This document shows positions 5,542 to 19,594 of a stretch of DNA of 32,000 bases, in pieces. The notes beneath the pieces are model-generated. The model made no database searches and was not told where the DNA came from. It saw only the letters and a program-made list of their open reading frames with translations. Made by a program: the position numbers and the translations under genes. Position 1 is the stretch's first letter. Each line of letters opens with the position of its first letter. Origin of the DNA: Kiritimatiella glycovorans. Its GTDB lineage: Bacteria > Verrucomicrobiota > Kiritimatiellia > Kiritimatiellales > Kiritimatiellaceae. Location: the NCBI RefSeq assembly GCF_001017655.1, contig NZ_CP010904.1:60001-92000 (forward strand). The letters run 5' to 3'.

Positions 5542-6573
5542 TCACCCCGTCGCCAGCATGATCATGGCGGCAACGTAGATCACCAGCACCAGCACGCTCT
5601 CGAAGCCGATATTGCCGATGCCGCGCTTCTCGCGGCGCAGGAGTCCAAGCAGCAGCACCCCGGTCATCAGGATCGTCACCGAAATCAGCAGGGCGTGGCG
5701 GCTCGTCATCGCGGCATAGATCGCGCCGGGGCGGAACGCCATGTCGGCGCCGGCAAGGAAAAGCATGTCGAAGCTGTTGCCGCCGATGATATTGCCCACC
5801 GCCAGGGTGAGTGCGCCGCGTCGCACGGCGGCCACGGACGTGATCAGCTCGGGAAGCGAGGTGACGACGGCGGTCAGCAGGGCACCGACGAACGTTTCCG
5901 AGAGGCCGGTCCGCTCTGAGATTTCCACTCCGGTGCGCATAATGAGCATGCCCGCCAGAAGCAGGACGGCGGCGCAGACGGAAAACTCGATCCAGAGACG
6001 TCGTTTCGTGCGCGATGTCGCCCCGGCCCCGCCCGGGTCTTCCCGTGTCTCTTCGGTACGCCGTGCGCGCCACATCGGCTGGCGTCGGCCGCGCATGACG
6101 ACGCGCATTCCGAACAGGTAGGCGGCCGCCAGGATGATCGAGCCCGGGTGCACCCCGGCGATGGAACTTTGCGGCGCGGAACGGAACACCAGCGGAAGCG
6201 CCAGTAGCACAATCAGCAGCGCCCCCTGGAGAAGATTCTCCAGGGAGGCCGCGGCGTGCTCAAGATTGACCCCGCGGTAGACGGCATCCGCGACGGCCAG
6301 GAAAAAGGTCTGGACCGCAATGCCGCCGATCGCGTTGCTGATCGCGAGATCCGGGTGCCCGCCGGCCGCCGCGGCCACAGACGTCACCAGGCCGGAAAGG
6401 GACGTGCTTCCGCCCAGCAAAACCGCCCCGAATATCGCCTCTCCCCATCCCGTCACATCGGCCAGCCGGTCGGCGGTGCCGGATATGCGCGTGCCCGTGA
6501 CGGCGATCGCCGCGCCCGCGCCGGCGAAGAGCAGCACGATCGCTTCCATCGGCCACTGGGCAACGTTCAGCAT
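5542..6573 (-). CDS. Sodium/calcium (CaCA, YrbG-like) cation antiporter
   Basis: Polytopic membrane protein with two internal alpha-repeat-like motifs (GEAIFGAVLLGGSTSLSGLVTS and GALLTAVVTSLPELITSV; GNIIGGNSFD). The start is placed at the ATG at 6573, preceded by GGAGG. The 6606 start would run into repeat copy A. Confidence 0.75.
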   Translation of the reverse strand: MLNVAQWPMEAIVLLFAGAGAAIAVTGTRISGTADRLADVTGWGEAIFGAVLLGGSTSLSGLVTSVAAAAGGHPDLAISNAIGGIAVQTFFLAVADAVYRGVNLEHAAASLENLLQGALLIVLLALPLVFRSAPQSSIAGVHPGSIILAAAYLFGMRVVMRGRRQPMWRARRTEETREDPGGAGATSRTKRRLWIEFSVCAAVLLLAGMLIMRTGVEISERTGLSETFVGALLTAVVTSLPELITSVAAVRRGALTLAVGNIIGGNSFDMLFLAGADMAFRPGAIYAAMTSRHALLISVTILMTGVLLLGLLRREKRGIGNIGFESVLVLVIYVAAMIMLATG

Positions 6574-6627
6574 CTCCGGACCTCCGTAGGGTTCAACTAT
6601 GAGCATTGTACAGAAGCCTCGTCCGGA

Positions 6628-6830
6628 GCGAAATCGCTAACGGGATCGGGATTGACCATGAAGGGCACGAAGAGCATGAAGGTTGGCTGAGGGGCTGAAC
6701 ATAATTCGTACTCGTACACGTACGCATACACGGAGCGCCGAAGGCGCGATCCCACTCCCCCCCCTGTTCAAGGAAATCGAGTACGAGTATCGCTTCGCTG
6801 AGTACACGTACGTTGTGACGCCAGCGGATT
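6628..6830 (+). repeat. Modular intergenic repeat, copy A, reference orientation (9-bp-unit box with micro-ORF, hexamer arms, hairpin core, L2 end)
   Basis: Box CCATGAAGGGCACGAAGAGCATGAAGGTTGGCTGAGG at 6656-6692. (CGTACN)n arm from about 6707. Core GGAGCGCCGAAGGCGCGATCCC at 6732-6753. Opposite arm CGAGTACGAGTAT..GAGTACACGTACG. End motif GTTGTGACGCCAGCGGATT. These modules align with copies at about 8.65-8.90, 14.40-14.58 and 18.40-18.70 kb, which are in reverse orientation. Confidence 0.85.
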
Positions 6831-6898
6831 ACCCGTCGCTCACCGCAAAATTTACGCGGAACCCAAAAGCCGGGGAATGTGCCGTTCCGGAGATTTAT

Positions 6899-6927
6899 TT
6901 GGACACCGGCGGATGGAGTCTTATACT
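6899..6927 (+). promoter_or_regulatory. Candidate sigma70-type promoter for pyrG (TTGGAC-N17-TATACT)
   Basis: TTGGAC at 6899-6904, a 17-nt spacer, TATACT at 6922-6927, about 50 nt upstream of the pyrG ATG. Motif match only. Confidence 0.35.
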
Positions 6928-6976: not shown

Positions 6977-8593
6977 ATGACGAAATACGTTTTCATTACG
7001 GGAGGGGTGGTATCCAGTCTCGGCAAGGGCATTACGGCGGCCTCCATCGGCCGCCTTCTCATTAATCGCGGATTGAGCATCCGCATGGTAAAGGTCGATC
7101 CGTATCTCAATATCGATCCGGGGACGATGAGTCCGTACCAGCACGGCGAGGTCTATGTGACCGAAGACGGTGCGGAGACCGATCTCGACCTCGGCCATTA
7201 CGAGCGCTACACCGGACAGCCCACCTCGCAGAAGAGCAACATCACCGCCGGCCGCGTCTACTGGGAGGTGCTGCAGAAGGAGCGGCGCGGGGATTTCCTC
7301 GGCGGCACGGTGCAGATGATTCCGCACATCTCCAACGAGATCAAACGCCAGATCCGTTCGCTGGAGGAAGAGGAGCCCGACGTCGTGCTGGTCGAACTGG
7401 GCGGGACGGTCGGCGATATCGAGGGGCTGATCTTTCTCGAGGCGTTGCGCCAGCTCGGTCTCGAAGTGGGCCGCGAAAACTCCCTCTTTCTTCACCTCAC
7501 CTACGTGCCATTCATTCACGCCGCGCAGGAGGTCAAGACCAAGCCGACCCAGCAGAGCGTAGCGAAACTGCGCGAGATCGGAATCATTCCGCACGTACTC
7601 GTATGCCGCACCGAGGTCGATCTCAACGAAGAGGTGATGACCAAGCTCGCCCTTTTCTGCAACGTTCCCCGCGAGTGCGTGCTCATGGAACGCGACGTCG
7701 AGCACTCCATTTACGAGGTTCCGCTGATGCTCGCCGAGCAGGGCCTGGACGAGATTATCCTCAATCATTTCCGTGTCGCGCGGCCTACGAAGAGGCTCAC
7801 CGACTGGGAGCGGCTCATCCAGGTGATCCGGCAGCCGGAAGGTCACGTGAGGATAGGGGTTACCGGCAAATATTCCGAGCTGCAGGATGCCTATAAATCG
7901 ATCTACGAGGCCCTCGACCACGGGGCGTTCGCCGCGGGTTACGCCGTCGATCTGGTAAAAATCGCCGCCGAGGATTTCGAGGAGGACGAAGACAGCCTGA
8001 CGATCCTCGACAGTCTCGACGGCATCCTCGTCCCGGGCGGGTTCGGTTCGCGCGGCGTGGAGGGCAAGATCCGGGCCGTCCGTTACGCCCGGGAAAACGG
8101 CATCCCGTTTCTAGGCATCTGCCTCGGATTGCAGTGCGCCGTCATCGAATACGCCCGCCACGTCTGCGGACTTCCCGAGGCGCACACCACCGAGTTCGGG
8201 GACGAGACCCCCGACCCGGTCATCTGCCTGATGGAGGAGCAGAAATCGGTCAAAAACATGGGCGGGACCATGCGGCTGGGCGCCTGTCCCTGCCGCATTA
8301 CCAAGGGAACCCGCACCCATGCCGCGTACGGTCGTGAAAAGGTTTCCGAGCGTCACCGCCACCGCTATGAGGTCAACAACGATTACCGCGAGAGTCTGGA
8401 GAAGGGCGGCCTCACGCTGTCCGGCATCAATACGGAACTTGATCTGGTCGAGATGGTCGAGCTGGAGGATCACCCGTGGTTCGTCGCGACCCAGGCCCAC
8501 CCCGAGTTCAAGTCCCAGCCCATTCGCCCGCATCCGCTCTTCAGGGATTTCATCGCTGCCGCGATCGAATACGGCCGCGCAACAAAAGCGTAG
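6977..8593 (+). CDS. pyrG: CTP synthase
   Basis: MTKYVFITGGVVSSLGKGITAASIG.. (synthetase domain), GILVPGGFGSRG.., and the GICLGLQ glutaminase Cys motif. Full length, 538 aa. Confidence 0.95.
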   Translation: MTKYVFITGGVVSSLGKGITAASIGRLLINRGLSIRMVKVDPYLNIDPGTMSPYQHGEVYVTEDGAETDLDLGHYERYTGQPTSQKSNITAGRVYWEVLQKERRGDFLGGTVQMIPHISNEIKRQIRSLEEEEPDVVLVELGGTVGDIEGLIFLEALRQLGLEVGRENSLFLHLTYVPFIHAAQEVKTKPTQQSVAKLREIGIIPHVLVCRTEVDLNEEVMTKLALFCNVPRECVLMERDVEHSIYEVPLMLAEQGLDEIILNHFRVARPTKRLTDWERLIQVIRQPEGHVRIGVTGKYSELQDAYKSIYEALDHGAFAAGYAVDLVKIAAEDFEEDEDSLTILDSLDGILVPGGFGSRGVEGKIRAVRYARENGIPFLGICLGLQCAVIEYARHVCGLPEAHTTEFGDETPDPVICLMEEQKSVKNMGGTMRLGACPCRITKGTRTHAAYGREKVSERHRHRYEVNNDYRESLEKGGLTLSGINTELDLVEMVELEDHPWFVATQAHPEFKSQPIRPHPLFRDFIAAAIEYGRATKA

Positions 8594-8596
8594 AGA

Positions 8597-8652
8597 CCGC
8601 GGTTCAGGCCAGGCGTTCCTTTCGCCGAGCGGATCCCCGTCGGCGTGTCCTC
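8597..8652 (-). pseudogene. 56-bp scrambled duplicate of the 3' end of the downstream HAD gene (fragment, non-functional)
   Basis: 8597-8618 is identical to 8906-8927, which spans the HAD stop codon. 8618-8652 is identical to 9034-9068 (HAD region encoding EDTPTGIRSAKG). This is the HAD tail with a 106-bp internal deletion, sitting on the far side of repeat copy B. Confidence 0.7.
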
Positions 8653-8897
8653 CTGAGTTCCCCGTCGGGGCACTCAGGATAATATCGTACTCGTACTCGT
8701 ACTCGATTTTCTGATTCCTCCCGCCTCAACCGACCTTCATGCTCTTCATGTCCTTCATGGTCTATCCCACTCCCTCTTACTCTGACCCTGACTCTGACTC
8801 TTACTCTGACTCTGATTCTGATTCTGACTCTGATTCCACTCCTGCATCCCACAAACCACAATATGTACAGGGGTTTTCAGGCAATGTTGAGGTCAGG
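8649..8897 (-). repeat. Modular intergenic repeat, copy B (L1 hairpin, (CGTACT)3, box with micro-ORF, 10-unit hexamer array, terminal 18-mer; lacks the hairpin core)
   Basis: L1 is CCTGAGTTCCCCGTCGGGGCACTCAGG. CGTACT x3 at 8686-8705. Box CCTCAACCGACCTTCATGCTCTTCATGTCCTTCATGG at 8724-8760. CTGCATCCCAC, ACAGGGG, and GGCAATGTTGAGGTCAGG at 8880-8897. Each block is shared with copy D and/or C. Confidence 0.8.
8775..8834. repeat. Hexanucleotide microsatellite (TCTKAY)10 inside repeat copy B
   Basis: Ten tandem units: TCTTAC TCTGAC CCTGAC TCTGAC TCTTAC TCTGAC TCTGAT TCTGAT TCTGAC TCTGAT. The equivalent position in copy C carries a different hexamer array (GATTTC/GACTTC/GATTCG, 14543-14574). Confidence 0.9.
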
Positions 8898-8912
8898 CGC
8901 GGGAGCCGCGGT

Positions 8913-9596
8913 TCAGGCCAGGCGTTCGAGGTCGGCGGGCGTGAGGCCTTCCAGCGTATCGACGGTCCAGTCGGCCGAGAGGTCGGCGGGATTCACGTAG
9001 GGCGTACGGACGGCCAGCACCCGCAGCCCGCTCCCTTTCGCCGAGCGGATCCCCGTCGGCGTGTCCTCGATCGCCACGCCCGTCTCCGGTTCGCCGCACG
9101 CGTGGGGATGACGCGCCCGCAGGCCGTCCCACGCGCGGCGGTACGATTCCGGGTCCGGTTTGCTGACCTCGACATCGTCGGCGGTCACCATCACTTCGAA
9201 CGCGCCGGTGAGCTCCAGCCGCGCGAGGATGGGATCGATGTCGCGGCGCAGTGCGCCGCTGCACAGCGCCAGCGGCATCGCGTGTTCGTGGACGGCGCGG
9301 ATCAGTTCGACGGCGCCGGGACAGGGATGGACGTCGCCTTCGTGCACTTTGCGCTCGAACGCCTCGGCCTTGAGGCGGATCAGTTCCCGCATCCGGGATT
9401 CGTCCAGGTCCCGGCCCGCGCGGCGGAAAAACGTGCGCAGTGCGTCGCGGTCGTCGAAGCCGATGTAATCCGCGGCGTACTCCTCCCAGCTGACCGGAAT
9501 GCCTTCCGGTGCGAGCACCTCGCAGAAAGCCGCGTGGTGCAGCGGCTCGCTGTCCACGATCACTCCGTCGAAGTCCATCACGATTCCCGTCGGCAT
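8913..9596 (-). CDS. HAD-IA family hydrolase (phosphatase / beta-phosphoglucomutase-like)
   Basis: MPTGIVMDFDGVIVDSEP (DxDG motif I), LCSG (motif II region), KPDPESY (motif III Lys), IEDTPTGIRSAKGSG (motif IV). Confidence 0.8.
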   Translation of the reverse strand: MPTGIVMDFDGVIVDSEPLHHAAFCEVLAPEGIPVSWEEYAADYIGFDDRDALRTFFRRAGRDLDESRMRELIRLKAEAFERKVHEGDVHPCPGAVELIRAVHEHAMPLALCSGALRRDIDPILARLELTGAFEVMVTADDVEVSKPDPESYRRAWDGLRARHPHACGEPETGVAIEDTPTGIRSAKGSGLRVLAVRTPYVNPADLSADWTVDTLEGLTPADLERLA

Positions 9597-9784: not shown

Positions 9785-12694
9785 TCAACCCAGCGGCTTC
9801 GCGACGCGGTCGCCTGCCGCGGTCAGCTCCATGTCCTCGCCGCAGAGCTTCAACGACATCGGCTCGCCTTCCAGCAGGGTCACGCCCGCTTCATTCCGGG
9901 AGACATTTATCTTCAGTCGGCGGCCTTTCCAGGTGACCGGGAATGCAAGGCCTTCCCATGCATCCGGGAGGACGGGATTGAATTCGAGTCCGCCGGGGTA
10001 GTCGCGCATCCCGCCGAACCCGTGGACCACGGTCATCCAGCAGCCGCCGAGGCAGGCGGAGTGCACGCCGCCGGCGGTATTGTTTTTGAAATCGTGGATG
10101 TCCATCAGCGCCGTCTGGCGGAAGAAGCCGTAGGCGTCCTCGATGTCCCCGATCTCGCAGGCAAGGATATTGTGCATGCAGGGGGAGAGGGAGGATCCGT
10201 GATTGGTGCGCGGTTCGTAGAAGCGGTAGTTGCGTTCCTTGAGTTCCCGGCTGAACCGGTGGCCCTGCGTGAACATCAGCATCACCGTATCCGCCTGTTT
10301 GATGACCTGCATGCGCCAGAGGTTCAGCGGGTGGTGGTGCGACCGGATGTCGGTGTTTTTCGGTACGAGGTCCATATCCACAGGATCCAGCTCAAGAAAA
10401 CAGTCGTCCTGCGGCGTAATTCCGAGTTCGTCGTCGTAGGGCACATACATCCTTTCCGCCGCCCGGCGCCAGCGCCCGACTTCCTCCTCATCCAGACCGA
10501 TCCTTGCGCGCAGAGCTTCGAGGGCCTGCGGCGCGTCCCGCTCCATGCGGGCGTACACCTCGCAGGCGTATTCGAACATCCAGCGTGTCATCACGTTCGT
10601 ATAGGCGTTATTGTTGACCCCGCAGCCGTACTCGTCCGGGCCGCAGACGACATTGAGACAGAACCGCCCGCCCTTATGATCCACGTAACAACCGCGGTCC
10701 TCCATGAATCGTGAGACTTCAAAAAGGATTTCCGCTCCCTTTTCGAACAGGAACGCGTCGTCGCCGGTCATCCGGTCGTACAGTCCGATGGCGCAGGCGA
10801 TATCGGCGACCAGGTGATACTGGGCCGTGGCGGCTTCGAATACGTGTCCGCACTCTTCGCCCTTGACCGAGTTCCATGAAAAAAGCGCGCCTTTGCCTTC
10901 CATCTCGCGGGCGCGTTCGCGGGCCTTGTCGAGAATGCTGTAGCGGTACTCGAGCAGCGGCCGTACGCTCTCCGGCTGGGTGTAGACGAAGGCCGGCACC
11001 ATGTACATTTCGGTGTCCCAGAACACGTGCCCGGAATACTGGTCGCCCGAGAGCCCGTTGGCGCTGATGCTGCGGTTGCCCCGCTCCGGGTTGCCCTGGC
11101 GGAGGTGGAAGAGATTGAAGCGGACCGCCTGCTGGTCCTGCACGGGGCCGTCGATCTCCAGGTCCGCGTCCCTCCAGAACCGGGCCCAGAATGACTCCTG
11201 TTCCCGCCGCAGTTCTTCGTAGCCCGCCTTTCGTGCCGAGGCGACCTCCTCCACGGCGCGCGGTTTGATGTCATCCTCCGGGCCGTCCATGGTGGACCAC
11301 ACGCCGAAGATCTTGTCGAGCGTCGCCCCCGTCTCCGCCGTATAGCGAAATACAAAATCGCTTCCCTCGAGGCTTCTTTCCCCCTCCGGCGAGTGGGCCT
11401 GTGCCACGGCTGCGGCGTCGTCCGAGGTGACGAGCTCCTGCACGGCGACCTCGATGCCGTCTTCTTCGCCGGTTTCACGGACGCGGACCTGTTCACCGCC
11501 CATCACCCGGCTCGGCACGAGCAGGCGGGTGCGTGAGGTCAGTGAAAGCCGCGTGCCCTGCGGGGCCTTTACGGAATACCGCAGGGCGCCGATCTGGCGG
11601 CGGACCATCGACACCAGCCGTTCCGTGTGAACTTCCACTTCCGTGCCGGCCGTCGTGGTCCAGATAAAGGAGCGCTCGACGATGCCGCGCTTCAGATCGA
11701 GCCGGCGGCAATGGTCGCGAACCGTCGAGGAGGCGATGCTGAATCGTTCGCCGTCGACTTCGAGATCGATGTTGACCCAGTCGCACATGTTGAGGATCGC
11801 GTGCCGGTATTCGGGGAATCCGGGCATCTTCCAGATGTGGTGGTACGGCTCGTAGCCGCACAGCCCGTTGACGAGGGTCGCCGGGTAGGCGTCGTAGCCC
11901 GGTTCGCTCTCTTCGAAGGTTCCGCGCACGCCGAAGACACCGTTGGTCAGCGCGAGGGCCGTCTCCCAGTAGGGGCAGCGGTCGGGCCGCACTTCGTCCT
12001 CGGTCAGACTCCACGGTTCGGCGGGCACGGACCGGACGCGGCCCGCATCGAGGAGGGCCTGCACATCGATCCGCGCGTAATCCTCCACGGTCTCGCCGGC
12101 CGAGGGCAGCCGTTCCCGCGGGCCGACGCCGACGCACTTCATGCCCGCGGCGCGGGCGGCCTCGACCCCCGATTCGGCATCCTCGAACACGAGGCAATGA
12201 TAGGGATGCATGTTCACGCGTTCGGCCCCCAGCAGAAAAATGTCGGGGGCCGGCTTGGGGTTTTCGATGTCGTGTCCGGTGACGACCGCGTCGAAATACT
12301 CGCCGATCCCGAGCGCATCGAGCACCGTCTGCGCATTTTTACTCGAAGAGCAGCAGGCCGTGCGCGTGCCCTCGGCCCTGAGGCGCCGGAGCAGATCAAG
12401 GGCGCCGGGATAGAGATCCTCCTCGTTGATCTCCTTGAGCAGCTCCCTGTAATACTCGTTCTTTACGTCGGCCAGCCGCTCCTTCTCCTCCTGCGGCAGC
12501 TCCACATGGTTGTGGTCGAGGATGACCTGCAGCGAGGCCAGGCGCGGCACGCCGCGACAGCGGTGATTGATCTCCTCGTCGAATGCCCACCCCTTTTCGT
12601 CGGCGAGCTTCTTCCAGCCGAGATAGTGATACTTGTCCGTGAACACCACCACGCCGTCGAGATCGAATAAAACCGCCCGTATCTGATGTGCCAT
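9785..12694 (-). CDS. Fusion protein: beta-phosphoglucomutase (HAD) N-terminal domain + GH65 disaccharide phosphorylase (kojibiose/maltose/trehalose phosphorylase family)
   Basis: N-terminus AVLFDLDGVVVFTDKYHYLGW..RGVPRLASL..KPAPDIFL..VFEDAESGVEAA (beta-PGM signature). The rest has GH65 signatures: GHVFWDTEMYMVPAF, VCGPDEYGCGVNNNAYTN (catalytic-acid region), SLSPCMH. Single 969-aa ORF. Confidence 0.85.
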   Translation of the reverse strand: MAHQIRAVLFDLDGVVVFTDKYHYLGWKKLADEKGWAFDEEINHRCRGVPRLASLQVILDHNHVELPQEEKERLADVKNEYYRELLKEINEEDLYPGALDLLRRLRAEGTRTACCSSSKNAQTVLDALGIGEYFDAVVTGHDIENPKPAPDIFLLGAERVNMHPYHCLVFEDAESGVEAARAAGMKCVGVGPRERLPSAGETVEDYARIDVQALLDAGRVRSVPAEPWSLTEDEVRPDRCPYWETALALTNGVFGVRGTFEESEPGYDAYPATLVNGLCGYEPYHHIWKMPGFPEYRHAILNMCDWVNIDLEVDGERFSIASSTVRDHCRRLDLKRGIVERSFIWTTTAGTEVEVHTERLVSMVRRQIGALRYSVKAPQGTRLSLTSRTRLLVPSRVMGGEQVRVRETGEEDGIEVAVQELVTSDDAAAVAQAHSPEGERSLEGSDFVFRYTAETGATLDKIFGVWSTMDGPEDDIKPRAVEEVASARKAGYEELRREQESFWARFWRDADLEIDGPVQDQQAVRFNLFHLRQGNPERGNRSISANGLSGDQYSGHVFWDTEMYMVPAFVYTQPESVRPLLEYRYSILDKARERAREMEGKGALFSWNSVKGEECGHVFEAATAQYHLVADIACAIGLYDRMTGDDAFLFEKGAEILFEVSRFMEDRGCYVDHKGGRFCLNVVCGPDEYGCGVNNNAYTNVMTRWMFEYACEVYARMERDAPQALEALRARIGLDEEEVGRWRRAAERMYVPYDDELGITPQDDCFLELDPVDMDLVPKNTDIRSHHHPLNLWRMQVIKQADTVMLMFTQGHRFSRELKERNYRFYEPRTNHGSSLSPCMHNILACEIGDIEDAYGFFRQTALMDIHDFKNNTAGGVHSACLGGCWMTVVHGFGGMRDYPGGLEFNPVLPDAWEGLAFPVTWKGRRLKINVSRNEAGVTLLEGEPMSLKLCGEDMELTAAGDRVAKPLG

Positions 12695-12904
12695 CGCTGC
12701 TTCCTTTCAGTCGCGTGATTCGTAAATTGATGAATAGTTCAGGTTAAATCGCGAGCGGCCTTTTTATCCGTTCATATAAAGACGGGCAAGGGAAATGCCC
12801 TGCGAACATCGCAGTTGCTTTCGTCGTCCGCGGCTGCCACAATAAAGGCCGCCGGGGATGGGTGCGATACGGGGCGGTGGAATCCGGTGCGAGGAGAACA
12901 AGCA

Positions 12905-14380
12905 ATGAACGTGACGCTACGGTTTTTTGCAGCAATGTTTGCAGTCATTTTCCTTTTCTGCGGACTGGCCGCATCCGGCGGCTCCGAAACCGCCGGGGAA
13001 CTCCCGGGACGGCCCTGGTTCCTGGACGAGCACAACCGCCACTTTATCATGAACGGGGTGGTGATGAACACCGAGGATTCGCGCGGGGATCTTCATTTTC
13101 CGCGCGAAGCCTACGAGCGCATGCGTCCGATGGGGCTCAACGTCCAGGTCGTTCGTCTGCTGTGTCCCCGCCTGGGCGGGTGGCCGGGGACGGAATGGGA
13201 TCCGGAGTACCTGGAGAAGGTTGACCGGCTGGTCCGCCTCGGGCGGGAGGCCGGGATGAAGACGATCTTCAAGATGACGCTCTACGATCTGACCGATGTC
13301 GCCTATGGCAAACTTACAGAAGAGCATTGGGCCCAACTCTTTCTCGACAGGGATGACACTCAGGAGGCCTATCTCGGGGCCTGGATGCGGGTGTTCGAAC
13401 GTTACGCCGACAACTGCGCCGTCTATGGATACGACCTGCTCAACGAGCCGCTCGCGGCGGGCGGGGGTTCGCGCCGCAAGGTGTGGGAGGTCGCGCCCGA
13501 GCTGGGCGGGCCGGAGCGTTTCGAGCGGGAGTATTTCATGCCGCTGTACCGGCGGGTGATCGACCGTCTGCGCGAGATCAGTCCGGATAAGTGGGCCTTC
13601 TTCCAGCCGATGCACGTGACGATTCCCGAGCACATCGAGAGCGGGTTTCCCTGCCACCGGGTCACCATTTCGCCCAGGCGCGACCAGACGGCCTACGCGC
13701 CACACTACTATGGTACGGAGCCGGAAAAGGCTGTAAATCGTTATCTGGAGGACGCCGCCGTGGCCGGCACGCCGCTGTTTATCGGAGAATACGGTCCGGC
13801 GACGAAAGAGCGCACCGACACCAATCTTCAGGCGCAGATCGACTACAAGCTCAACCTCATGCGCACCGTGGAACTTTTGGACCGGAATGTGATCGGGCAT
13901 GTCAAGGCGTGGTGGTGCGGAAGCCGTGTCTACAACGCCAGCGCGCATCAGCGCCATCGGCGCACATGGGCGATTTTCAAGGGCGATTCGCAGGCCCTGG
14001 GGCCGGAGCGCGAATACATTCTGGATGTCATGGCCCGCCCCCGTCCGCTTTTCGTGGCGGGCAAAGTCGGGGCGTTTCACTTTGATTTCGCGACCCGCGT
14101 CTTCGAGATGGAGTTCTCTCCCGGCGCGGCGAGGGGGCCTTCCGAGATCTTTATTCCCGCCGACCGGCACTACCCCGACGGGTTCCGCATTCGCTATCGC
14201 GACCTGGAACTCGCCTGGAACCCGAAGAAACCGCGCGGTTTCAGCGTGGTAAGCAACCCGGAACGCTACAACCGCTGGTTGTTTCGCTGGAATCGCAAGC
14301 AGCAGCGGCTGATCGTAAAGCGCTGGCCCGATCACGAACCCGTGGCGACCCTGCGGGTGGTGCCCGGGTGGAGAGACTGA
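12905..14380 (+). CDS. Secreted glycoside hydrolase family 5 protein
   Basis: GAGGAG RBS before the ATG at 12905. Signal peptide MNVTLRFFAAMFAVIFLFCGLAASGG. GH5 acid/base motif GYDLLNEP and nucleophile motif PLFIGEYG. The 12815 start in the track adds a non-signal extension. Confidence 0.8.
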   Translation: MNVTLRFFAAMFAVIFLFCGLAASGGSETAGELPGRPWFLDEHNRHFIMNGVVMNTEDSRGDLHFPREAYERMRPMGLNVQVVRLLCPRLGGWPGTEWDPEYLEKVDRLVRLGREAGMKTIFKMTLYDLTDVAYGKLTEEHWAQLFLDRDDTQEAYLGAWMRVFERYADNCAVYGYDLLNEPLAAGGGSRRKVWEVAPELGGPERFEREYFMPLYRRVIDRLREISPDKWAFFQPMHVTIPEHIESGFPCHRVTISPRRDQTAYAPHYYGTEPEKAVNRYLEDAAVAGTPLFIGEYGPATKERTDTNLQAQIDYKLNLMRTVELLDRNVIGHVKAWWCGSRVYNASAHQRHRRTWAIFKGDSQALGPEREYILDVMARPRPLFVAGKVGAFHFDFATRVFEMEFSPGAARGPSEIFIPADRHYPDGFRIRYRDLELAWNPKKPRGFSVVSNPERYNRWLFRWNRKQQRLIVKRWPDHEPVATLRVVPGWRD

Positions 14381-14394
14381 GGGGCGGGGTCAGA

Positions 14395-14575
14395 CTCCTG
14401 AGTTCAACATGGGGACACCCGGGGGAATATCGTACTCGTACTCAGCGAAGCGGTACTCGTACTCGAATTCCTTGAATCGATGGATGGGATCGCGCCTTCG
14501 GCGCTCCGAGTACGCGTACGAATTATGTTCTCTCTGAATCCCGATTTCGACTTCGATTCGGATTTCGAGATTTCA
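14395..14575 (-). repeat. Modular intergenic repeat, copy C (L1 end, hexamer arms, hairpin core, alternative hexamer array; lacks the micro-ORF box)
   Basis: CTCCTGAGTT.. L1 end as in copy B. CGTACTCGTACTCAGCGAAGCGGTACTCGTACTCG arm, matching copy A in reverse complement. 14458-14521 is 64/64 identical to 18423-18486 (copy D). GTACGAATTATGTTC junction as in copy A. Hexamer array at 14543-14574. Confidence 0.85.
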
Positions 14576-14601
14576 TCCGTGTCATCGGTGTAATCCGGTG
14601 C

Positions 14602-14625
14602 GCCAAGCAAAGCTTGGCTGTTTCT
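14602..14625 (+). terminator. Perfect 7-bp hairpin followed by a T-rich tract (terminator-like)
   Basis: GCCAAGC-AAA-GCTTGGC followed by TGTTTCT. A second hairpin, GCCGCT-GATCA-AGCGGC (14685-14701), is also followed by a T-rich run. Both lie downstream of GH5 and repeat copy C on the + strand. Confidence 0.35.
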
Positions 14626-15041
14626 AACTGAATGAAAGGAGTCACCCATTAGAGGTTCCGGTCAAACACAAAAGTCCCCTTCGTGCCGCTGATCAAGCGG
14701 CTTCCCTTCATGCCTTGTTTTGATCGGATTCAACCGTCGCCTCAACCGTTGCGTTCCGTACCGTGGTTTTCGTTTGCGGTTGTTTCAGTCACCCATCTGG
14801 TTTTTAGGTGAGGGCGAATCTTTTCCAGATCCATGGCCGCCACCCGTTCTCGTATTGGAGCCAGAAAACCGTTTGTTCCCGCTCGTTGCCTATTCAGTCA
14901 CCGTGGTTCATCTGCACGCAGACTTCCAGACCCTTGAAGGCTGACGACAGGACAGACCGCAAAAGCTGAAGCGATGCCGCCGGTTCCAATCAGTCCGCTG
15001 ATTTAAGCAGACCCCTAGCCGGTTCCCGGCAGCATCGGGTT

Positions 15042-16070
15042 TTAAAACAACATTCCCATTACATATTCCTCCCCGTTCATGACATGCCAAACGGCTTTGG
15101 ACAATTTTGCCGCCAAGGCCTTCTTCGCCACAATCGCGTTGCGCTTTTTCTTCTTCCGGTCATACCAGGATTGAATCTCCGGATAAAAGCGCGGAGCGAA
15201 GCTCGCGGCTTCAACGAAAGCCCATGCGAGAAACGGATTGCCGTTGCGCTTATTGTTCTCACCTTTCTTCCTGCTGTTGGAACTTCGCTCACTTTTGACG
15301 GCGCGGCAGTAGGAGGCGTAGCATCCCGCGTTCGGGAAGCGGGCGAAGTTGCCGCTTTCAAGCACGATGGTCATCCCAAGCGCCTTCCCGATGCCCGGCA
15401 CGGTCTGAACCTGTTCAAACGATGGGTTGGGCTCAATAAACCCCAGCACCGCTGATTCGATCTGTCCGGCCAGCCGCTCACTGCACTGGACCGCCTCAAG
15501 CAACGTGCGGAGTTGAAGCTGTACGAACGGATCAAGGCCCGTCGCCTCGGCATCCGCCTGCGTCCACTGCTGAAGAGCACGCGATCCCGGCGCCTTGAAT
15601 CCGTAACGCTCCAGCAGGCTTTGCAGGCTGAGCATAACCTGGGTGCGCCGCCTGACAAACAGCTGTCGGCGTCGAAGCGCGTCGCGAATCGAACGAACCT
15701 CCTTCGGATAAATGTAGCTCTCCGGGAAAATATCCAATCGGAGCAGTTCGGCCAGCCAACGAGCATCCGATGCGTCATCGGCATGTTTCAACCCCTTGTA
15801 CTGTTTCATCTTCGCCGGATTCCCCAATCGCACGTCCCGGTTCTGCTCACGCAAGCCGTCCACCAGCCAGTACCAGTTGAACGTGGACTCAATCCCCATC
15901 GCCTGAACCTGCGGCCAGTAGGGATCCATCGCCTCATTGACTGCATCGAGCGTGGTTCGTACCCGCCGCCGGAAGACTTCCGTGCCTTCCCGGTCGCAAA
16001 TCGAGAGAAAAACATTGTTTCCATGCAGGTCGGCTCCTGCGTACAATTCCTTTGCGCTGGTCGTTTGCAT
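15042..16070 (-). CDS. IS110-family transposase (DEDD/RuvC-like N-domain + Transposase_20 C-domain)
   Basis: MQTTSAKELYAGADLHGNNVFLSICDREG.. N-terminus. C-terminal VPGIGKALGMTIVLESGNFARFPNAGCYASYCRAV.. SERSSNSRKKGENNKRNGNPFLAWAFVEAA, typical of IS110/IS1111 recombinases. AAAGGAG RBS 7 nt upstream. Confidence 0.9.
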   Translation of the reverse strand: MQTTSAKELYAGADLHGNNVFLSICDREGTEVFRRRVRTTLDAVNEAMDPYWPQVQAMGIESTFNWYWLVDGLREQNRDVRLGNPAKMKQYKGLKHADDASDARWLAELLRLDIFPESYIYPKEVRSIRDALRRRQLFVRRRTQVMLSLQSLLERYGFKAPGSRALQQWTQADAEATGLDPFVQLQLRTLLEAVQCSERLAGQIESAVLGFIEPNPSFEQVQTVPGIGKALGMTIVLESGNFARFPNAGCYASYCRAVKSERSSNSRKKGENNKRNGNPFLAWAFVEAASFAPRFYPEIQSWYDRKKKKRNAIVAKKALAAKLSKAVWHVMNGEEYVMGMLF

Positions 16071-16600
16071 ATCCGGTACTCCTTTCGTTTTTGCTTAAAC
16101 AAAGAGTACGTTGCATTCGACCAGCGTCTATTTCAAAGAACCTCTATATGGTTATCAGTCGTGTGAATTGATCGTTGCACATGTAGCCGACCCAGCGGTG
16201 ATCGGGGGTAACCCCGGCGTCGAAGCCTGGGAAGGCGAACGCGCGAGCCGTAGCGAAAGCGAACTTGATTCAGCCTCGTTACACAAGTCGAGGGCGGCCA
16301 GCCTATCGGATATGATGAAGCCAGCACTTGTCGGGAAGGAACGGTCATATGCACCGGCAAGGCCCTCCGGGGTAACAAGAGATGGCGCGCGCGGAAAGAA
16401 CAGCCAGGAACTTGGGAGACCCGTCGTGATGTCGGGCAAGCCGACAAGCCCGTGGGGGAATCAATAACCTTGGGGGTGGTCATGTGCGGGGGTCGGAGAG
16501 GCTCGTAGTAGTGATGAAGCGGGGTAATGCCCGTGGAGCGAAGGGGCCTCGGCGGAAGACGAGCTGAGTAAGAAGCGCGGGGGACTGATTGGTGAAACCT

Positions 16601-17932
16601 ATGACAGAAGAAGCGACGGAGTACTATCGCATTGACGACAGACTCTTGCCGCCGAAACTCGCCGCGCTGAGACAGAAGCTGAGTCAGAAGGCCAAACAGG
16701 AGAAGCGGTTTCGCTTCTACAGTCTCTATGGCCACATTGGCCGGGCCGACACTCTGCTGGCGGCATGGAAACATGTACGCGCTAACGGCGGAAAAGAAGG
16801 CCCCGATGGTGTGACCATCGAGGACATCGAACAGAGTCAAGGAGGAGTCGAAGCCTTCTTGGCGGATATTGAACGCAGCCTGAAGGATCGAACCTACCGT
16901 GCTGGAAAAGTGCGGCGGGTCTACATCCAGAAGGTGAACGGGAAACTCCGTCCCTTGGGAATACCCTCGGTGCGGGATCGGGTCGTGCAGACCGCTACGG
17001 TTCTGATATTGGAACCGATCTTTGAAGCTGACTTCAAGGACTGCTCCCATGGGTTCCGGCCTGAGCGCTCGGCGCATGATGCGTTGAAGGCGATTGGGCA
17101 GGAGCTCCGGCAAGGGCGGTGTGCGGTGTATGATGCGGATCTGGCCGGCTATTTCGACAGTATTCCACACGACAAGCTCATCGCTTGTGTGCAGATGCGT
17201 GTCACCGACCGGTCCGTGCTGAAGCTGATCCGAATGTGGCTGAAAGCGCCGGTAGAGGAAACGGAGAAAGGCAAACCGCCGACCGTGAAGCGCAACGACA
17301 AGGGCACGCCGCAAGGCGGGGTCATTTCGCCGCTTCTGGCCAACATCTATCTGCACTGGTTCGATGCGGTGTTTTACCGCAAAGACGGACCGGCACGGTG
17401 GGCGAAGGCCAAACTGGTGAGGTACGCCGATGACTTCGTGGTCCTCGCCCGGTATATCGGTCCGCAACTCGAAGCGTTCATCGAAGCCAAGATAGAAGGG
17501 TGGCTCGGGCTGAAGATCAACCGGGACAAGACCCGGATACTCGATGCTCGGGAACCGGGGCAGACGCTGGACTTTCTCGGATATAGCTTCCGCTATGACC
17601 GGGACCTCGGCGGACGCCCGTGCCGGTACTGGAACCTGACACCGTCGCGGAAAGCGCTCCAACGGGAACGTGATCGGCTTCGGGAGATGACCGGACCGGA
17701 ACAATGCTTCAAACCTCTGCCGACGGTGATCGACGAACTCAACATGCAAATGCGAGGATGGGCAAACTACTTCTCGCTGGGTTATCCGCGTGTGGCATTC
17801 CGCCACGTCAATGGATACGTGCGACAGCGTCTCACGCGACATGCGAAACGACGCAGTCAGCGCGGCTACTGGCCCCCTGAAGGTATGAGCTACTACGCGC
17901 ATTTCAAGAACATGGGACTGATCTACCTGTGA
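16601..17932 (+). CDS. Group II intron reverse transcriptase/maturase (no En/HNH domain evident)
   Basis: RT motifs: [52 protein letters not shown], and the YADDFVV catalytic box. Maturase X domain: [11 protein letters not shown]. The product ends shortly after X, with no Zn-finger or HNH. TTG at 16589 and GTG at 16592 are alternative starts. Confidence 0.9.
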
Positions 17933-17958
17933 AACCATCCAACAAATGCCTTCCGCGA

Positions 17959-17991
17959 GAGCCGGATGCGGGAAATCCGCATGTCCGGTTC
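17959..17991 (+). ncRNA. Group II intron domain V (catalytic hairpin)
   Basis: GAGCCGGAUGCGGGAAAUCCGCAUGUCCGGUUC has the AGC triad, a GNRA-type apical loop and a 2-nt bulge. It lies 27 nt after the IEP stop. Confidence 0.85.
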
Positions 17992-18155
17992 GACGAGGGG
18001 GAGGGCAGTCAGCGGTCATTGGCTCTAAGCCTCTCATCCCGTGGCTCCCTCTCTACTCTACTGGCCGAAAACACAAGAAAGGTCTCTCGCCAAGGCGCAG
18101 AGATCGCAAAGATGAATGAGAAGAGCACAGGCAAAGAAATGGTGCGTTCTCTCTT

Positions 18156-18252
18156 ACGTTCGTAGTAGGCCCGCAGGTCCGCGCAGCGGGGCCAGGGCCG
18201 TTATCTTCACGCGCCTTGGCCCTTCGGGCGCTTACGGCGCTACTACGAACGT
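18156..18252. other. 97-nt structured element: perfect 13-bp closing stem around three GC-rich sub-hairpins
   Basis: ACGTTCGTAGTAG (18156-18168) is the exact reverse complement of CTACTACGAACGT (18240-18252). Internal hairpins are CCCGC..GCGGG, GGCCAGGG..CCTTGGCC (one G-T, so it favours + strand RNA) and C-TTCG-G. Function unknown. Confidence 0.4.
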
Positions 18253-18398
18253 TTGTCGTCTCCCATCCCGACCCCGGCATGATCTGTGACCGTTGTGGTG
18301 AATCCCCATCCCGCCTCTTCCCCGAACGGCTCCACCACAAAAATCTACGAAGAACCGGATTTTTGTAGAACTACTGAAATCGTAGCGGCTGGATTAGA

Positions 18399-18700
18399 AA
18401 TCCGCTTGCGTCACAACGCACGCGTACTCGAATTCCTTGAATCGATGGATGGGATCGCGCCTTCGGCGCTCCGAGTACGCGTACGAGTACGAGTACGAGT
18501 ATATGTCCCCCTCCTCAACCAACCTTCATGTTCTTCATGGTTCTCTCTCCCCTCCGATCTGCCGCATCCCACCTTTCCCGGGAACCCTTCCATAAAAATC
18601 CACGAATAACCCTTTTTTCCGCCGGGACACCCTGATTCAAAACTCACTTCAATGATCACAGGGGGATTCGAGCGCGTCTTCGGGCAATGTTGAAGTCAGG
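18399..18700 (-). repeat. Modular intergenic repeat, copy D (L2 end, hairpin core, (GAGTAC)5 arm, box with micro-ORF, terminal 18-mer)
   Basis: AATCCGCTTGCGTCACAACG L2 end as in copy A. 64-bp core identical to copy C. GAGTAC-type hexamers at 18473-18502. Box CCTCAACCAACCTTCATGTTCTTCATGG at 18513-18540. CCGCATCCCAC, ACAGGGG, and GGCAATGTTGAAGTCAGG at 18683-18700, as in copy B. Confidence 0.85.
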
Positions 18701-19594
18701 AATGGTCGGAGCGATATCGACCGCCGAGACCGGTTCCGCGCGGCGCTGTCCGGCCTTCACCCCTTTCGGCCAGCGGATGACCAGCGGCACGCGAATGCCG
18801 GCGTCGTAGAGATACGGTTTGCTGCGGATAAATCCGGGGCCCTGGTCGCCGGTGACGATGATCATCGTCTCGTCGAGGACGCCGCGTGTTTCGAGCCGTT
18901 CGAGCAGAAGCCCGATGCCCGCGTCCGCGCGTTCGACCTCGTTGTAGTAGCCGGCGACCTCTTTTCGCAGCGCCGGGTCGTCGATGCCGCCGAGGAAATC
19001 CCACGCCGTTACATCCTCCGCCCCGCGCGGATGCGCCGGGAAACCGTTACGCTGATCCTCAAACGGGGTGTGCGGATCGACGTAGGCGTACCAGATGAAG
19101 AAGGGTTTATCGCCCGCCTGCTGCCTGTAACGATCGGCGATCGTGACCATGCGTGCGTTGTCGCTGCCGACCGGCGTCGCAAAATCGAAGTCGGGGAACC
19201 CGTGCGGGTTCATGTGCAACTTGCCGGTCGAACGAAGATCGTATCCCGCGGCGCGAAGCCAGTCGACCAGGCACGGCGTTCCGTCGTGTACGGCGTATCC
19301 GCTCACGGTCAGCCCGACCTGGCCGTTCGCATGCGGGTAGATTCCGGTGATCATCGCACTGCGCGAGGGACTGCACGAGGGCTGGGCACAGTAGGCGACC
19401 TCGAAGAGCGTGCCCTCGCGCGCGAGGCGGTCGATGTTCGGCGTCCGCGCCTGCGGGTCGCCGTAACATCCGCACTGATTGCCCATATCGTCCGTGACGA
19501 TCAGGATCACGTTCGGCGCCTTTTTCTCCTCCGCGGCACCCAGCGGCAGTGCCGCCGCACAGGCGGCGGCCGTCAGATATTCACGTCGTTTCAT
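18656..19594 (-). CDS. Sulfatase (formylglycine-dependent arylsulfatase family), apparently C-terminally truncated; possible pseudogene
   Basis: Signal peptide MKRREYLTAAACAAALPLGAA. NVILIVTDDMG metal site. CSPSRSAMITG (CxPxR FGly motif). The ORF stops at 312 aa, right after VDIAPTI, the point where family members normally continue for roughly 150 more residues. The last 14-16 codons lie in repeat copy D. Confidence 0.75.
   Translation of the reverse strand: MKRREYLTAAACAAALPLGAAEEKKAPNVILIVTDDMGNQCGCYGDPQARTPNIDRLAREGTLFEVAYCAQPSCSPSRSAMITGIYPHANGQVGLTVSGYAVHDGTPCLVDWLRAAGYDLRSTGKLHMNPHGFPDFDFATPVGSDNARMVTIADRYRQQAGDKPFFIWYAYVDPHTPFEDQRNGFPAHPRGAEDVTAWDFLGGIDDPALRKEVAGYYNEVERADAGIGLLLERLETRGVLDETMIIVTGDQGPGFIRSKPYLYDAGIRVPLVIRWPKGVKAGQRRAEPVSAVDIAPTIPDFNIARRRARIPL

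Follow-up and report, generated by a model that had tools for sequence, protein, structure and literature searches.

Mosaic intergenic repeats of Kiritimatiella glycovorans as probable decayed MITE-type elements with ISL3-type terminal repeats

INTRODUCTION

Several non-coding gaps within 32,000 nucleotides of the Kiritimatiella glycovorans chromosome (NZ_CP010904.1, positions 60,001 to 92,000; hereafter the window) share blocks of sequence in mosaic combinations: alternative ends (L1 and L2), inverted 6-nt arms around a core with a small hairpin, a box of 9-nt units, and arrays of hexamers. This raises the question of what such repeats are, and whether they are mobile elements, palindromes maintained by the host, products of local duplication, or genes for structured RNAs or tiny proteins. 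A sequence-only reading had described them as a modular family with four copies, either an active or recently active element of the mobile type or a structured RNA family, and matched them to no named MITE or RNA family. The K. glycovorans genome is reported to contain 75 transposase genes (PMC5148204).

RESULTS

Repeat loci and modules

The four loci first described, A to D, are present at the positions and on the strands where they had been placed, and their modules occur well above the chance expectation for the window. The core 23-mer GGAGCGCCGAAGGCGCGATCCCA has three exact matches, in A, C, and D (0.01 expected), and the terminal 18-mer CCTGACYTCAACATTGCC has two, in B and D (0.02 expected). 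The 9-nt box CATGAAGNN gives five overlapping matches in A, B, and D (0.07 expected), and all 11 matches of (GAGTAC)2 fall within the four loci (0.03 expected). Alignment confirmed the mosaic of alternative ends, with L1 in B and C and L2 in A and D, as well as the 64-nt perfect identity claimed between two copies, which are C and D and share it inside 67 nt at 99%. To the modules listed for the family is added an inverted repeat of ISL3 type, 22 nt long, which D and E carry and which had been overlooked. The count of four was incomplete, since a fifth, diverged copy, E, lies on the same strand as D (Table 1). A sensitive self-search of the remaining 20 kb of the window revealed no further copy, and all five fall within 12 kb.

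TABLE 1 Genes, repeat units, and inserted elements of the window
Feature	Position	Strand	Description
Na/Ca exchanger	5542-6606	-	
Unit A	6628..6863	+	GGGATCGGGATT, 9-nt box, left arm, core, right arm, L2, degenerate ISL3-type right repeat
A, mini-ORF	6658-6690		
A, core hairpin	6732-6754		
A, L2	6811-6830		
A, degenerate right inverted repeat	6842-6863		ACCGCAAAATTTACGCGGAACC; 15/22 ungapped
pyrG	6977-8593	+	
Duplicated HAD 3'-end pieces	8597..8652	-	8618-8652 = 9034-9068; 8597-8618 = 8906-8927
Unit B	8649..8897	-	Outer terminus, CCCCTGT, inverted-repeat remnant ATTGTGG, GTGGGATGC, hexamer array, box, right arm, L1
B, hexamer array	8774-8833		10 units
B, outer terminus	8882-8897		CCTGACCTCAACATTG
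HAD	8913-9596	-	
GH65	9785-12694	-	
GH5	12815-14380	+	
Unit C with upstream spacer	14395..14592	-	TCGAAA-type hexamer array, left arm, core (14485-14507), right arm, L1
Group II intron	14593..18061	+	Intron proper 14593-14644 and 16158-18061; Rfam matches
IS110-family IS	14645..16157	-	Nested in intron; TCA/TGA flanks on both sides
IS110-family transposase	15042-16070	-	Pfam DEDD_Tnp_IS110 and Transposase_20
Group II intron RT/maturase	16589-17932	+	Pfam RVT_1 and GIIM
Unit E	18100-18356	-	Left repeat, GGGATGGGGATTCACC, degenerate box, altered arms, GC-rich centre with GCCC-GAA-GGGC hairpin
E, arms	18222-18252 / 18156-18186		CGTTCGTAGTAG / CTACTACGAACG
E, ISL3-type left inverted repeat	18335-18356		Perfect, 22/22; nhmmer E 2.8e-5
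D, inner fragment of right repeat	18357-18368		CTACAAAAATCC; inner 9-12 nt; adjoins E left repeat
Unit D	18399..18700	-	Outer terminus, CCCCCTGT, ISL3-type left repeat, GTGGGATGC, box, left arm, core, short right arm, L2
D, core	18450-18472		
D, ISL3-type left inverted repeat	18590-18611		GGTTATTCGTGGATTTTTATGG; 19/22; expected 0.00; nhmmer E 0.0097
D, outer terminus	18685-18700		CCTGACTTCAACATTG; joined in frame to truncated sulfatase
Sulfatase ORF	18656-19594	-	Pfam Sulfatase 1-295/301; SGSH_C only 8-50/154

Unit E lies in the 338-nt stretch between D and the group II intron (18398-18062). Its alignment with A, from GGGAT through the box, left arm, and hairpin, scores 30, against a maximum of 17 among shuffled sequences (0/300). 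The arms of E read CGTAGT/ACTACG, where the other copies have CGTACT/AGTACG, and pair into a perfect stem of 13 bp (DNA z −5.3). Identities are 82-85% between A and C or D and about 65% for E, which indicates that the copies are of very different ages and do not derive from one recent event; E is an older copy. A candidate right repeat for E was not significant (p about 0.07), nor was an L2-like motif at the site of intron insertion in this unit.

The order of modules is constant in A, D, and E: the ISL3-type left repeat, GGGATG, a variable 6-nt array, the 9-nt box, the inverted 6-nt arms around the small GC hairpin, L2, and the ISL3-type right repeat. The box varies between two and three units from locus to locus, and the array of B reaches 10 hexamers. 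No module is universal, given that B has only the right arm and has lost the left arm and the core, and that C is without the box and the left-end modules. Units D, E, and C stand head to tail on one strand and, once the intron and the IS110 element are subtracted, make up a single non-coding tract of 835 nt between a truncated sulfatase gene and the 3' end of GH5. The pattern of B is that of the left part of D joined to the right part of C. Unit A lies between the divergent Na/Ca-exchanger gene and pyrG. The view that every copy sits exactly at a gene boundary does not hold for C, whose upstream limit is the 5' end of the intron at 14593, and D, which had been assigned to the 3' end of the sulfatase gene, is located instead at the point where that ORF is truncated.

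ISL3-type terminal inverted repeats

The 22-mer GGTTCTTCGTAGATTTTTGTGG has two sites in the window at up to three mismatches, where 0.00 are expected: E carries it at 22 of 22 positions and D at 19 of 22. Comparison with environmental sequences identifies this 22-mer as the inverted repeat that ends insertion sequences of the ISL3 family. The pattern GGTTMTTCGNRGATTTTTRTGG, taken from the stretch common to D, E, and an environmental contig (L001), was found at 82 sites in 72 contigs of the JGI metagenomes, against about 4 expected by chance according to our own calculation. At all of these sites the similarity starts exactly at GGTTC, with unrelated and A/T-rich flanks upstream. At many sites the distance to the contig end is about 80-100 nt, the contigs often breaking 80-100 nt inside the element, and several contigs contain two inverted copies, 230 or 960 nt apart. 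Two contigs, L132 (804-2118) and L157, hold complete insertion sequences of 1.3 kb with the 22-mer at their ends, and their 407-aa ORFs match DDE_Tnp_ISL3, HTH_Tnp_ISL3, and Zn_ribbon_ISL3. MITE derivatives with the same ends measure 250-430 bp in the metagenomes, and those of L107 and L123 are bordered by perfect 8-bp target duplications (CAGATAAC and AATATTTA, respectively). Published ISL3 terminal repeats start with GGCTCTTCG and are accompanied by 8-nt direct repeats, and MITEs derived from this family have been described (PMC11448079; PMC3852290).

JGI metagenome contigs L094, L099, L101, L107, L123, L134, L148, and L150 show a widely distributed ISL3 subfamily, whose terminal repeat is GGTTCTTCGTAGATTTTT(G/A)TGG, together with its MITEs.

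Within the window, good left ends of ISL3 type are found in D and E and a right end in A, and no unit has both ends intact. The right repeat of A is degenerate; its local alignment matches at 14 of 17 positions (1/500 shuffles), and it is correctly inverted and placed 11 nt past L2. The partial right repeat of D is weak (8/500 shuffles, p about 0.016). A candidate left repeat for A at 6590-6611 matches at 12 of 22 positions, which is chance level, and has no target duplication.

No recognisable 8-bp target-site duplication was detected for any unit of the window: the flanks of A (ctccgtag and caaaagcc) do not match, and B has no matching 8-bp flanks and is bordered instead by a duplication of 163 nt from the 3' end of HAD. 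As no copy combines two intact ends with a target duplication, current mobility of the units is not shown, and the description of the family as active or recently active is not sustained. The 64-bp identity invoked for that description joins two neighbouring units of one tract, for which gene conversion or local duplication is a simpler explanation. The absence of target duplications would fit copies that are old and rearranged, but gives no positive support for them.

Apart from the 22-32 nt of the repeat itself, nhmmer with ISL3 left ends and blastn detected no similarity between ISL3 elements and the internal modules (box, arms, core, L1, and L2). The ISL3-type repeats could thus be separate small insertions beside an unrelated repeat. 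A resemblance of the box to the N-terminal codons of ISL3 transposases, noticed by eye (EEHY..LLGL versus HEEHEGWLRG), was not significant.

The environmental contig L001 has the same repeat and GTTTGTGGGATG beside an intron and an IS110 element, which suggests that the same repeat family occurs in a close relative or that mobile DNA has been shared. Its positions 1-700 (ENA ERZ10759773) contain the ISL3-type repeat and reiterated GTGGGATG motifs, followed by the antisense 3' part of another group II intron and then by a 96.6%-identical IS110 within the intron ORF.

The surroundings of unit A provided two further observations. The first ATG of the Na/Ca-exchanger ORF (6606) is about 20 nt from the unit and has no Shine-Dalgarno sequence, and a second ATG 33 nt downstream, preceded by GGAGG, is the more likely start. 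Starting there, the gene would have unit A in its promoter or 5' UTR region. On the other side, the sole sigma-70-like promoter match upstream of pyrG (TGGACA-16-TATACT, 6900-6927, +) lies just past the unit. It is overlapped by a weak resemblance to the ISL3-type left repeat (6881-6927, +; 14/22, at chance level) followed by GGATGG. Transcription of pyrG from a relic IS end is a speculative possibility.

A second, outer pair of termini

A different inverted repeat, the 16-mer CCTGACTTCAACATTG, has three occurrences in the window (0.15 expected). Two form the left ends of B and D; the third closes C on the right in the opposite orientation (14397-14412, +) and is an inverted copy of 18685-18700 with 14 of 16 positions conserved. 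The ends read CCTGA(C/G)TTCAACAT, and the termini have the format CCTGAC/GTTCAACAT...ATGTTGAAC/GTCAGG. Since the 16-mer stands at the left of D and inverted at the right of C, the outer pair bounds the whole 835-nt tract formed by D, E, and C, with matches of 16/16 and 14/16. The same pair bounds the 246-bp unit B, where the left copy matches at 15 of 16 positions and the right copy, inside L1, is weaker (11/16 by eye). The left terminus of B has its inverted counterpart in the reverse complement of the L1 hairpin, CCTGAGTTC..., and this hairpin folds with −24 kcal/mol (z −2.3). The similarity between B and D extends outside the ISL3 repeat, which simple ISL3 transposition leaves unexplained.

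Rearranged neighbouring genes

Rearrangements are seen at two of the genes that adjoin the repeats. The sulfatase ORF is truncated at DIAPTI/PDFNIA, the slash marking the first base of the outer terminus of D. Its 312 aa align to about the first 320 residues of PDB relatives of 450-580 aa; about 150-200 C-terminal residues are missing, and the missing part was not seen downstream. The truncated gene is probably a pseudogene, though it may be annotated as a gene. At the other locus, the last 163 nt of HAD are present twice, flanking B, and the distal copy has an internal deletion of 106 nt and adjoins the stop codon of pyrG. This suggests that HAD and pyrG were once convergent, with about 10 nt between their stop codons, and that B came by a duplicative rearrangement and not by simple transposition. 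PyrG itself is 100% identical to the NCBI protein of K. glycovorans, with the next relative at only 77%, and a comparison of filled and empty sites at pyrG in the nearest relatives found no synteny.

These rearrangements allow the repeats to be regarded as the outcome of local segmental duplication in a mobile-element graveyard, in which the D-E-C tract was partly copied to the flanks of pyrG with no transposition at all. The confinement of the five copies to 12 kb, the likeness of B to the left of D and the right of C, the HAD duplication on either side of B, and the near-identity of C and D over 67 nt would all follow from such a history. So would the absence of the exact core from 185,579 species genomes and the JGI metagenomes, collections from which the source species is itself missing. 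Local duplication is, however, rather improbable as the whole explanation: the spread of identities from 82-85% to about 65% points to different ages, the copies lie beside unrelated genes, two kinds of terminal inverted repeat mark the ends of the units, and the environmental contig, from another organism, has a related left end. Searches of plasmid, phage, and viral sequences returned nothing except a simple hexamer run, and the exact core has no match in viral contigs. A core-like 19-mer in one contig (L115) was attributed to chance, being inside a coding-like region and without arms.

Nested insertions

The group II intron and the IS110-family element that interrupt the tract could be delimited with environmental relatives. 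Contigs L006 (91%) and L007 (84%) carry the same intron, and there the matches to 14592-14644 and to 16155 onward are contiguous. Among the homologues of the intron RT, none came from K. glycovorans. The intron therefore begins with GTGCG at 14593, and the IS110 element is inside it, 52 nt from the intron 5' end; the Rfam D1-D4 match (16155-16383) misses the true 5' end because of this split. The IS110 ends, about 16157 and 14645, were set with L002/L003 (96.6% identity) and with two related copies in one contig (L004/L005). An alternative extent of this element, from 18398 to 14594 with L2 as its target, was ruled out by L002-L005 and L006. The flanks of related IS110 elements read ...GA/CTGATAA...CTCTAATGGG/TGAC... 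(slashes mark the junctions), which suggests that the element may use a short programmed target. No repeat modules were found in the flanks of the IS110 relatives L163 and L164. Intron and IS110 both recognise short motifs unrelated to the repeat modules, and they are secondary insertions, outside the repeat family.

A second variant of the IS110 transposase, at least 90% identical, is present under at least four K. glycovorans chromosome accessions (AKJ64264.1, AKJ64683.1, AKJ65281.1, and AKJ65536.1), and near-identical IS110 copies in this organism number at least five. This IS is thus multi-copy and probably active in the genome. Its 3' non-coding end of 390 nt (14650-15042, −) is strongly conserved, long stretches being invariant, in relatives whose proteins are 76-97% identical (L002, L004, L005, L163, and L164), and may contain a guide (bridge/seek) RNA of the IS1111-like type.

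Folding, RNA, and coding capacity

The inverted arms and the hairpins of the units invite a functional interpretation. They might belong to a palindromic repeat that the host maintains between genes, comparable to REP/BIME or BOX. The functional part would then be the arm-hairpin-arm structure, and the transposon ends nearby would be unrelated insertions attracted to it. The inverted arms and the GAA-loop hairpin persist in the diverged unit E despite the changed sequence of its arms, the genes on either side of B and of C converge, so that a terminator working in both directions would be of use there, and the elements nested here, an IS110-family IS and a group II intron, are both of kinds known to enter repeated palindromes. 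On the other hand, A, C, and D fold barely better than their shuffles (z −0.03 to −2.4), a terminator scan gave nothing beyond chance, and no T-tracts follow the hairpins. Moreover, a host function is difficult to reconcile with modules of which none is universal, and the intron and the IS110 element recognise motifs other than the modules. The compensatory change in E is not specific evidence, because palindromes also keep complementarity by processes at the DNA level. We consider a host-maintained palindromic repeat unlikely, and structural constraint on the inverted arms, as read from their retention in E, a minority reading.

A related proposal takes the palindrome of arm, GAA hairpin, and arm as a selected structure specific to Kiritimatiella, be it a bidirectional terminator, a stabilising RNA hairpin, or a protein-binding site, which would have spread on MITEs mobilised by ISL3 elements and been kept by compensatory change as in E. 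This proposal is unlikely; if it is true, the palindrome would be a counterpart of REP/BIME in the PVC superphylum.

The suggestion of a structured RNA family fared poorly. It had been noted that the repeats belong to no named RNA family, and this was corroborated: nothing credible in Rfam covers the units even at E≤5, and only a tRNA and the group II intron pass the gathering thresholds. The folding z-scores are mostly weak, and the copies occur in both orientations relative to the neighbouring genes, in sense, antisense, and promoter-upstream contexts. Genes for tiny proteins were considered alongside, since the lengths of the tandem units (6 and 9 nt) are all divisible by three, a mini-ORF in the box (MK(x)MK..VG) is preceded by a purine-rich stretch in A, B, and D, and frames of about 80 aa are open across B, C, and D. 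These frames are not conserved between copies, however, shifting after an indel between A and C/D, and C does not have the mini-ORF, which in E is destroyed. The 82-aa frame of D has no relative among 1.84 billion representatives, none of the 10 ORFs over the units was found in the protein collection, and no transposase domain was detected inside the units with Pfam. A structured non-coding RNA family or a set of tiny protein genes is highly improbable.

DISCUSSION

The repeats A to E are most probably five copies or fragments of a composite, non-autonomous MITE-type element, decayed and recombined, with slipped arrays of 6 and 9 nt; we assign this reading a probability of roughly 0.6. The units are non-coding and of 180-300 bp, within the size of MITEs (under about 600 bp). 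The ISL3 repeats of D and E, the degenerate right repeat of A, and the outer 16-mers of B and of the D-E-C tract place the elements within the known MITE kind. The original proposal of a modular repeat family of the mobile-element type is thereby borne out, and its statement that the repeats correspond to no named MITE family is not supported, given these termini.

In the history that we propose, the units would have been moved in trans by an ISL3-family DDE transposase binding the 22-bp repeat and inserting at A/T-rich sites. The copies would then have decayed, and slipped-strand mispairing would have altered the arrays of 6 and 9 nt. Hexamer arms and shared modules would have favoured recombination or gene conversion, as may be reflected in the swap of L1 and L2, the loss of the core from B, and the homogenisation of the 67 nt shared by C and D. 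The truncation of the sulfatase and the duplication of the HAD 3' end may be collateral rearrangements of the same process, and B looks like an internally deleted derivative of a tract of the D...C type. The tract would later have received the group II intron, and the intron would then have received IS110.

This reading accounts for five unannotated gaps in the type genome of the phylum Kiritimatiellota. It also flags the truncated sulfatase and the rearranged junction between HAD and pyrG, and sets right the limits of the group II intron that IS110 interrupts. The 22-nt probe GGTTCTTCGTAGATTTTTGTGG retrieves from metagenomes an ISL3 subfamily of wide occurrence, together with its MITEs. No new biological question is opened unless the internal palindrome is functional, and the repeats are best read as an ordinary kind of mobile element in a little-studied phylum.

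Comparison with known systems helps to place these elements. From general knowledge, the units resemble the BOX elements of Streptococcus pneumoniae and the BIMEs of enterobacteria in being modular and intergenic, with optional or variably repeated modules, alternative ends, and hairpin potential. BOX elements have the structure boxA-boxB(n)-boxC, and REP/BIME units are palindromes of 20-40 nt associated with RAYT transposases. There is no sequence relation to either, and the units of the window bear terminal repeats of DDE-type insertion sequences and microsatellite-like arrays. They are also much longer than REP units, at 180-300 bp, with D, E, and C arranged head to tail and not as alternating short palindromes, and no IS200/IS605-type (RAYT) gene was seen among the window ORFs examined.

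The group II intron in the repeat tract, with IS110 inside the intron, resembles nested safe-haven insertions, in which such elements settle in other mobile DNA, and a similar nest is found in L001. This nesting belongs to the surroundings of the repeats and not to the repeat family, as the intron and the IS recognise short motifs and not the modules.

The closest parallels are the MITEs of the ISL3 family, such as the 187-nt Microcystis MITE with GGCTCTTCG terminal repeats (PMC11448079) and the ISMac21-derived MITE of Methanosarcina acetivorans (PMC3852290). In contrast with these, the copies in the window are all defective, with one good end each and no target duplication. Their internal content, comprising hexamer and 9-mer arrays and an internal palindrome with a GC hairpin, is unusual and without detectable relation to ISL3, and some units share a second, outer pair of inverted termini. 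What they have in common with the ISL3-family MITEs is their small size, their non-coding nature, a terminal repeat that begins GG(C/T)TCTTCG, and an A/T-rich insertion context.
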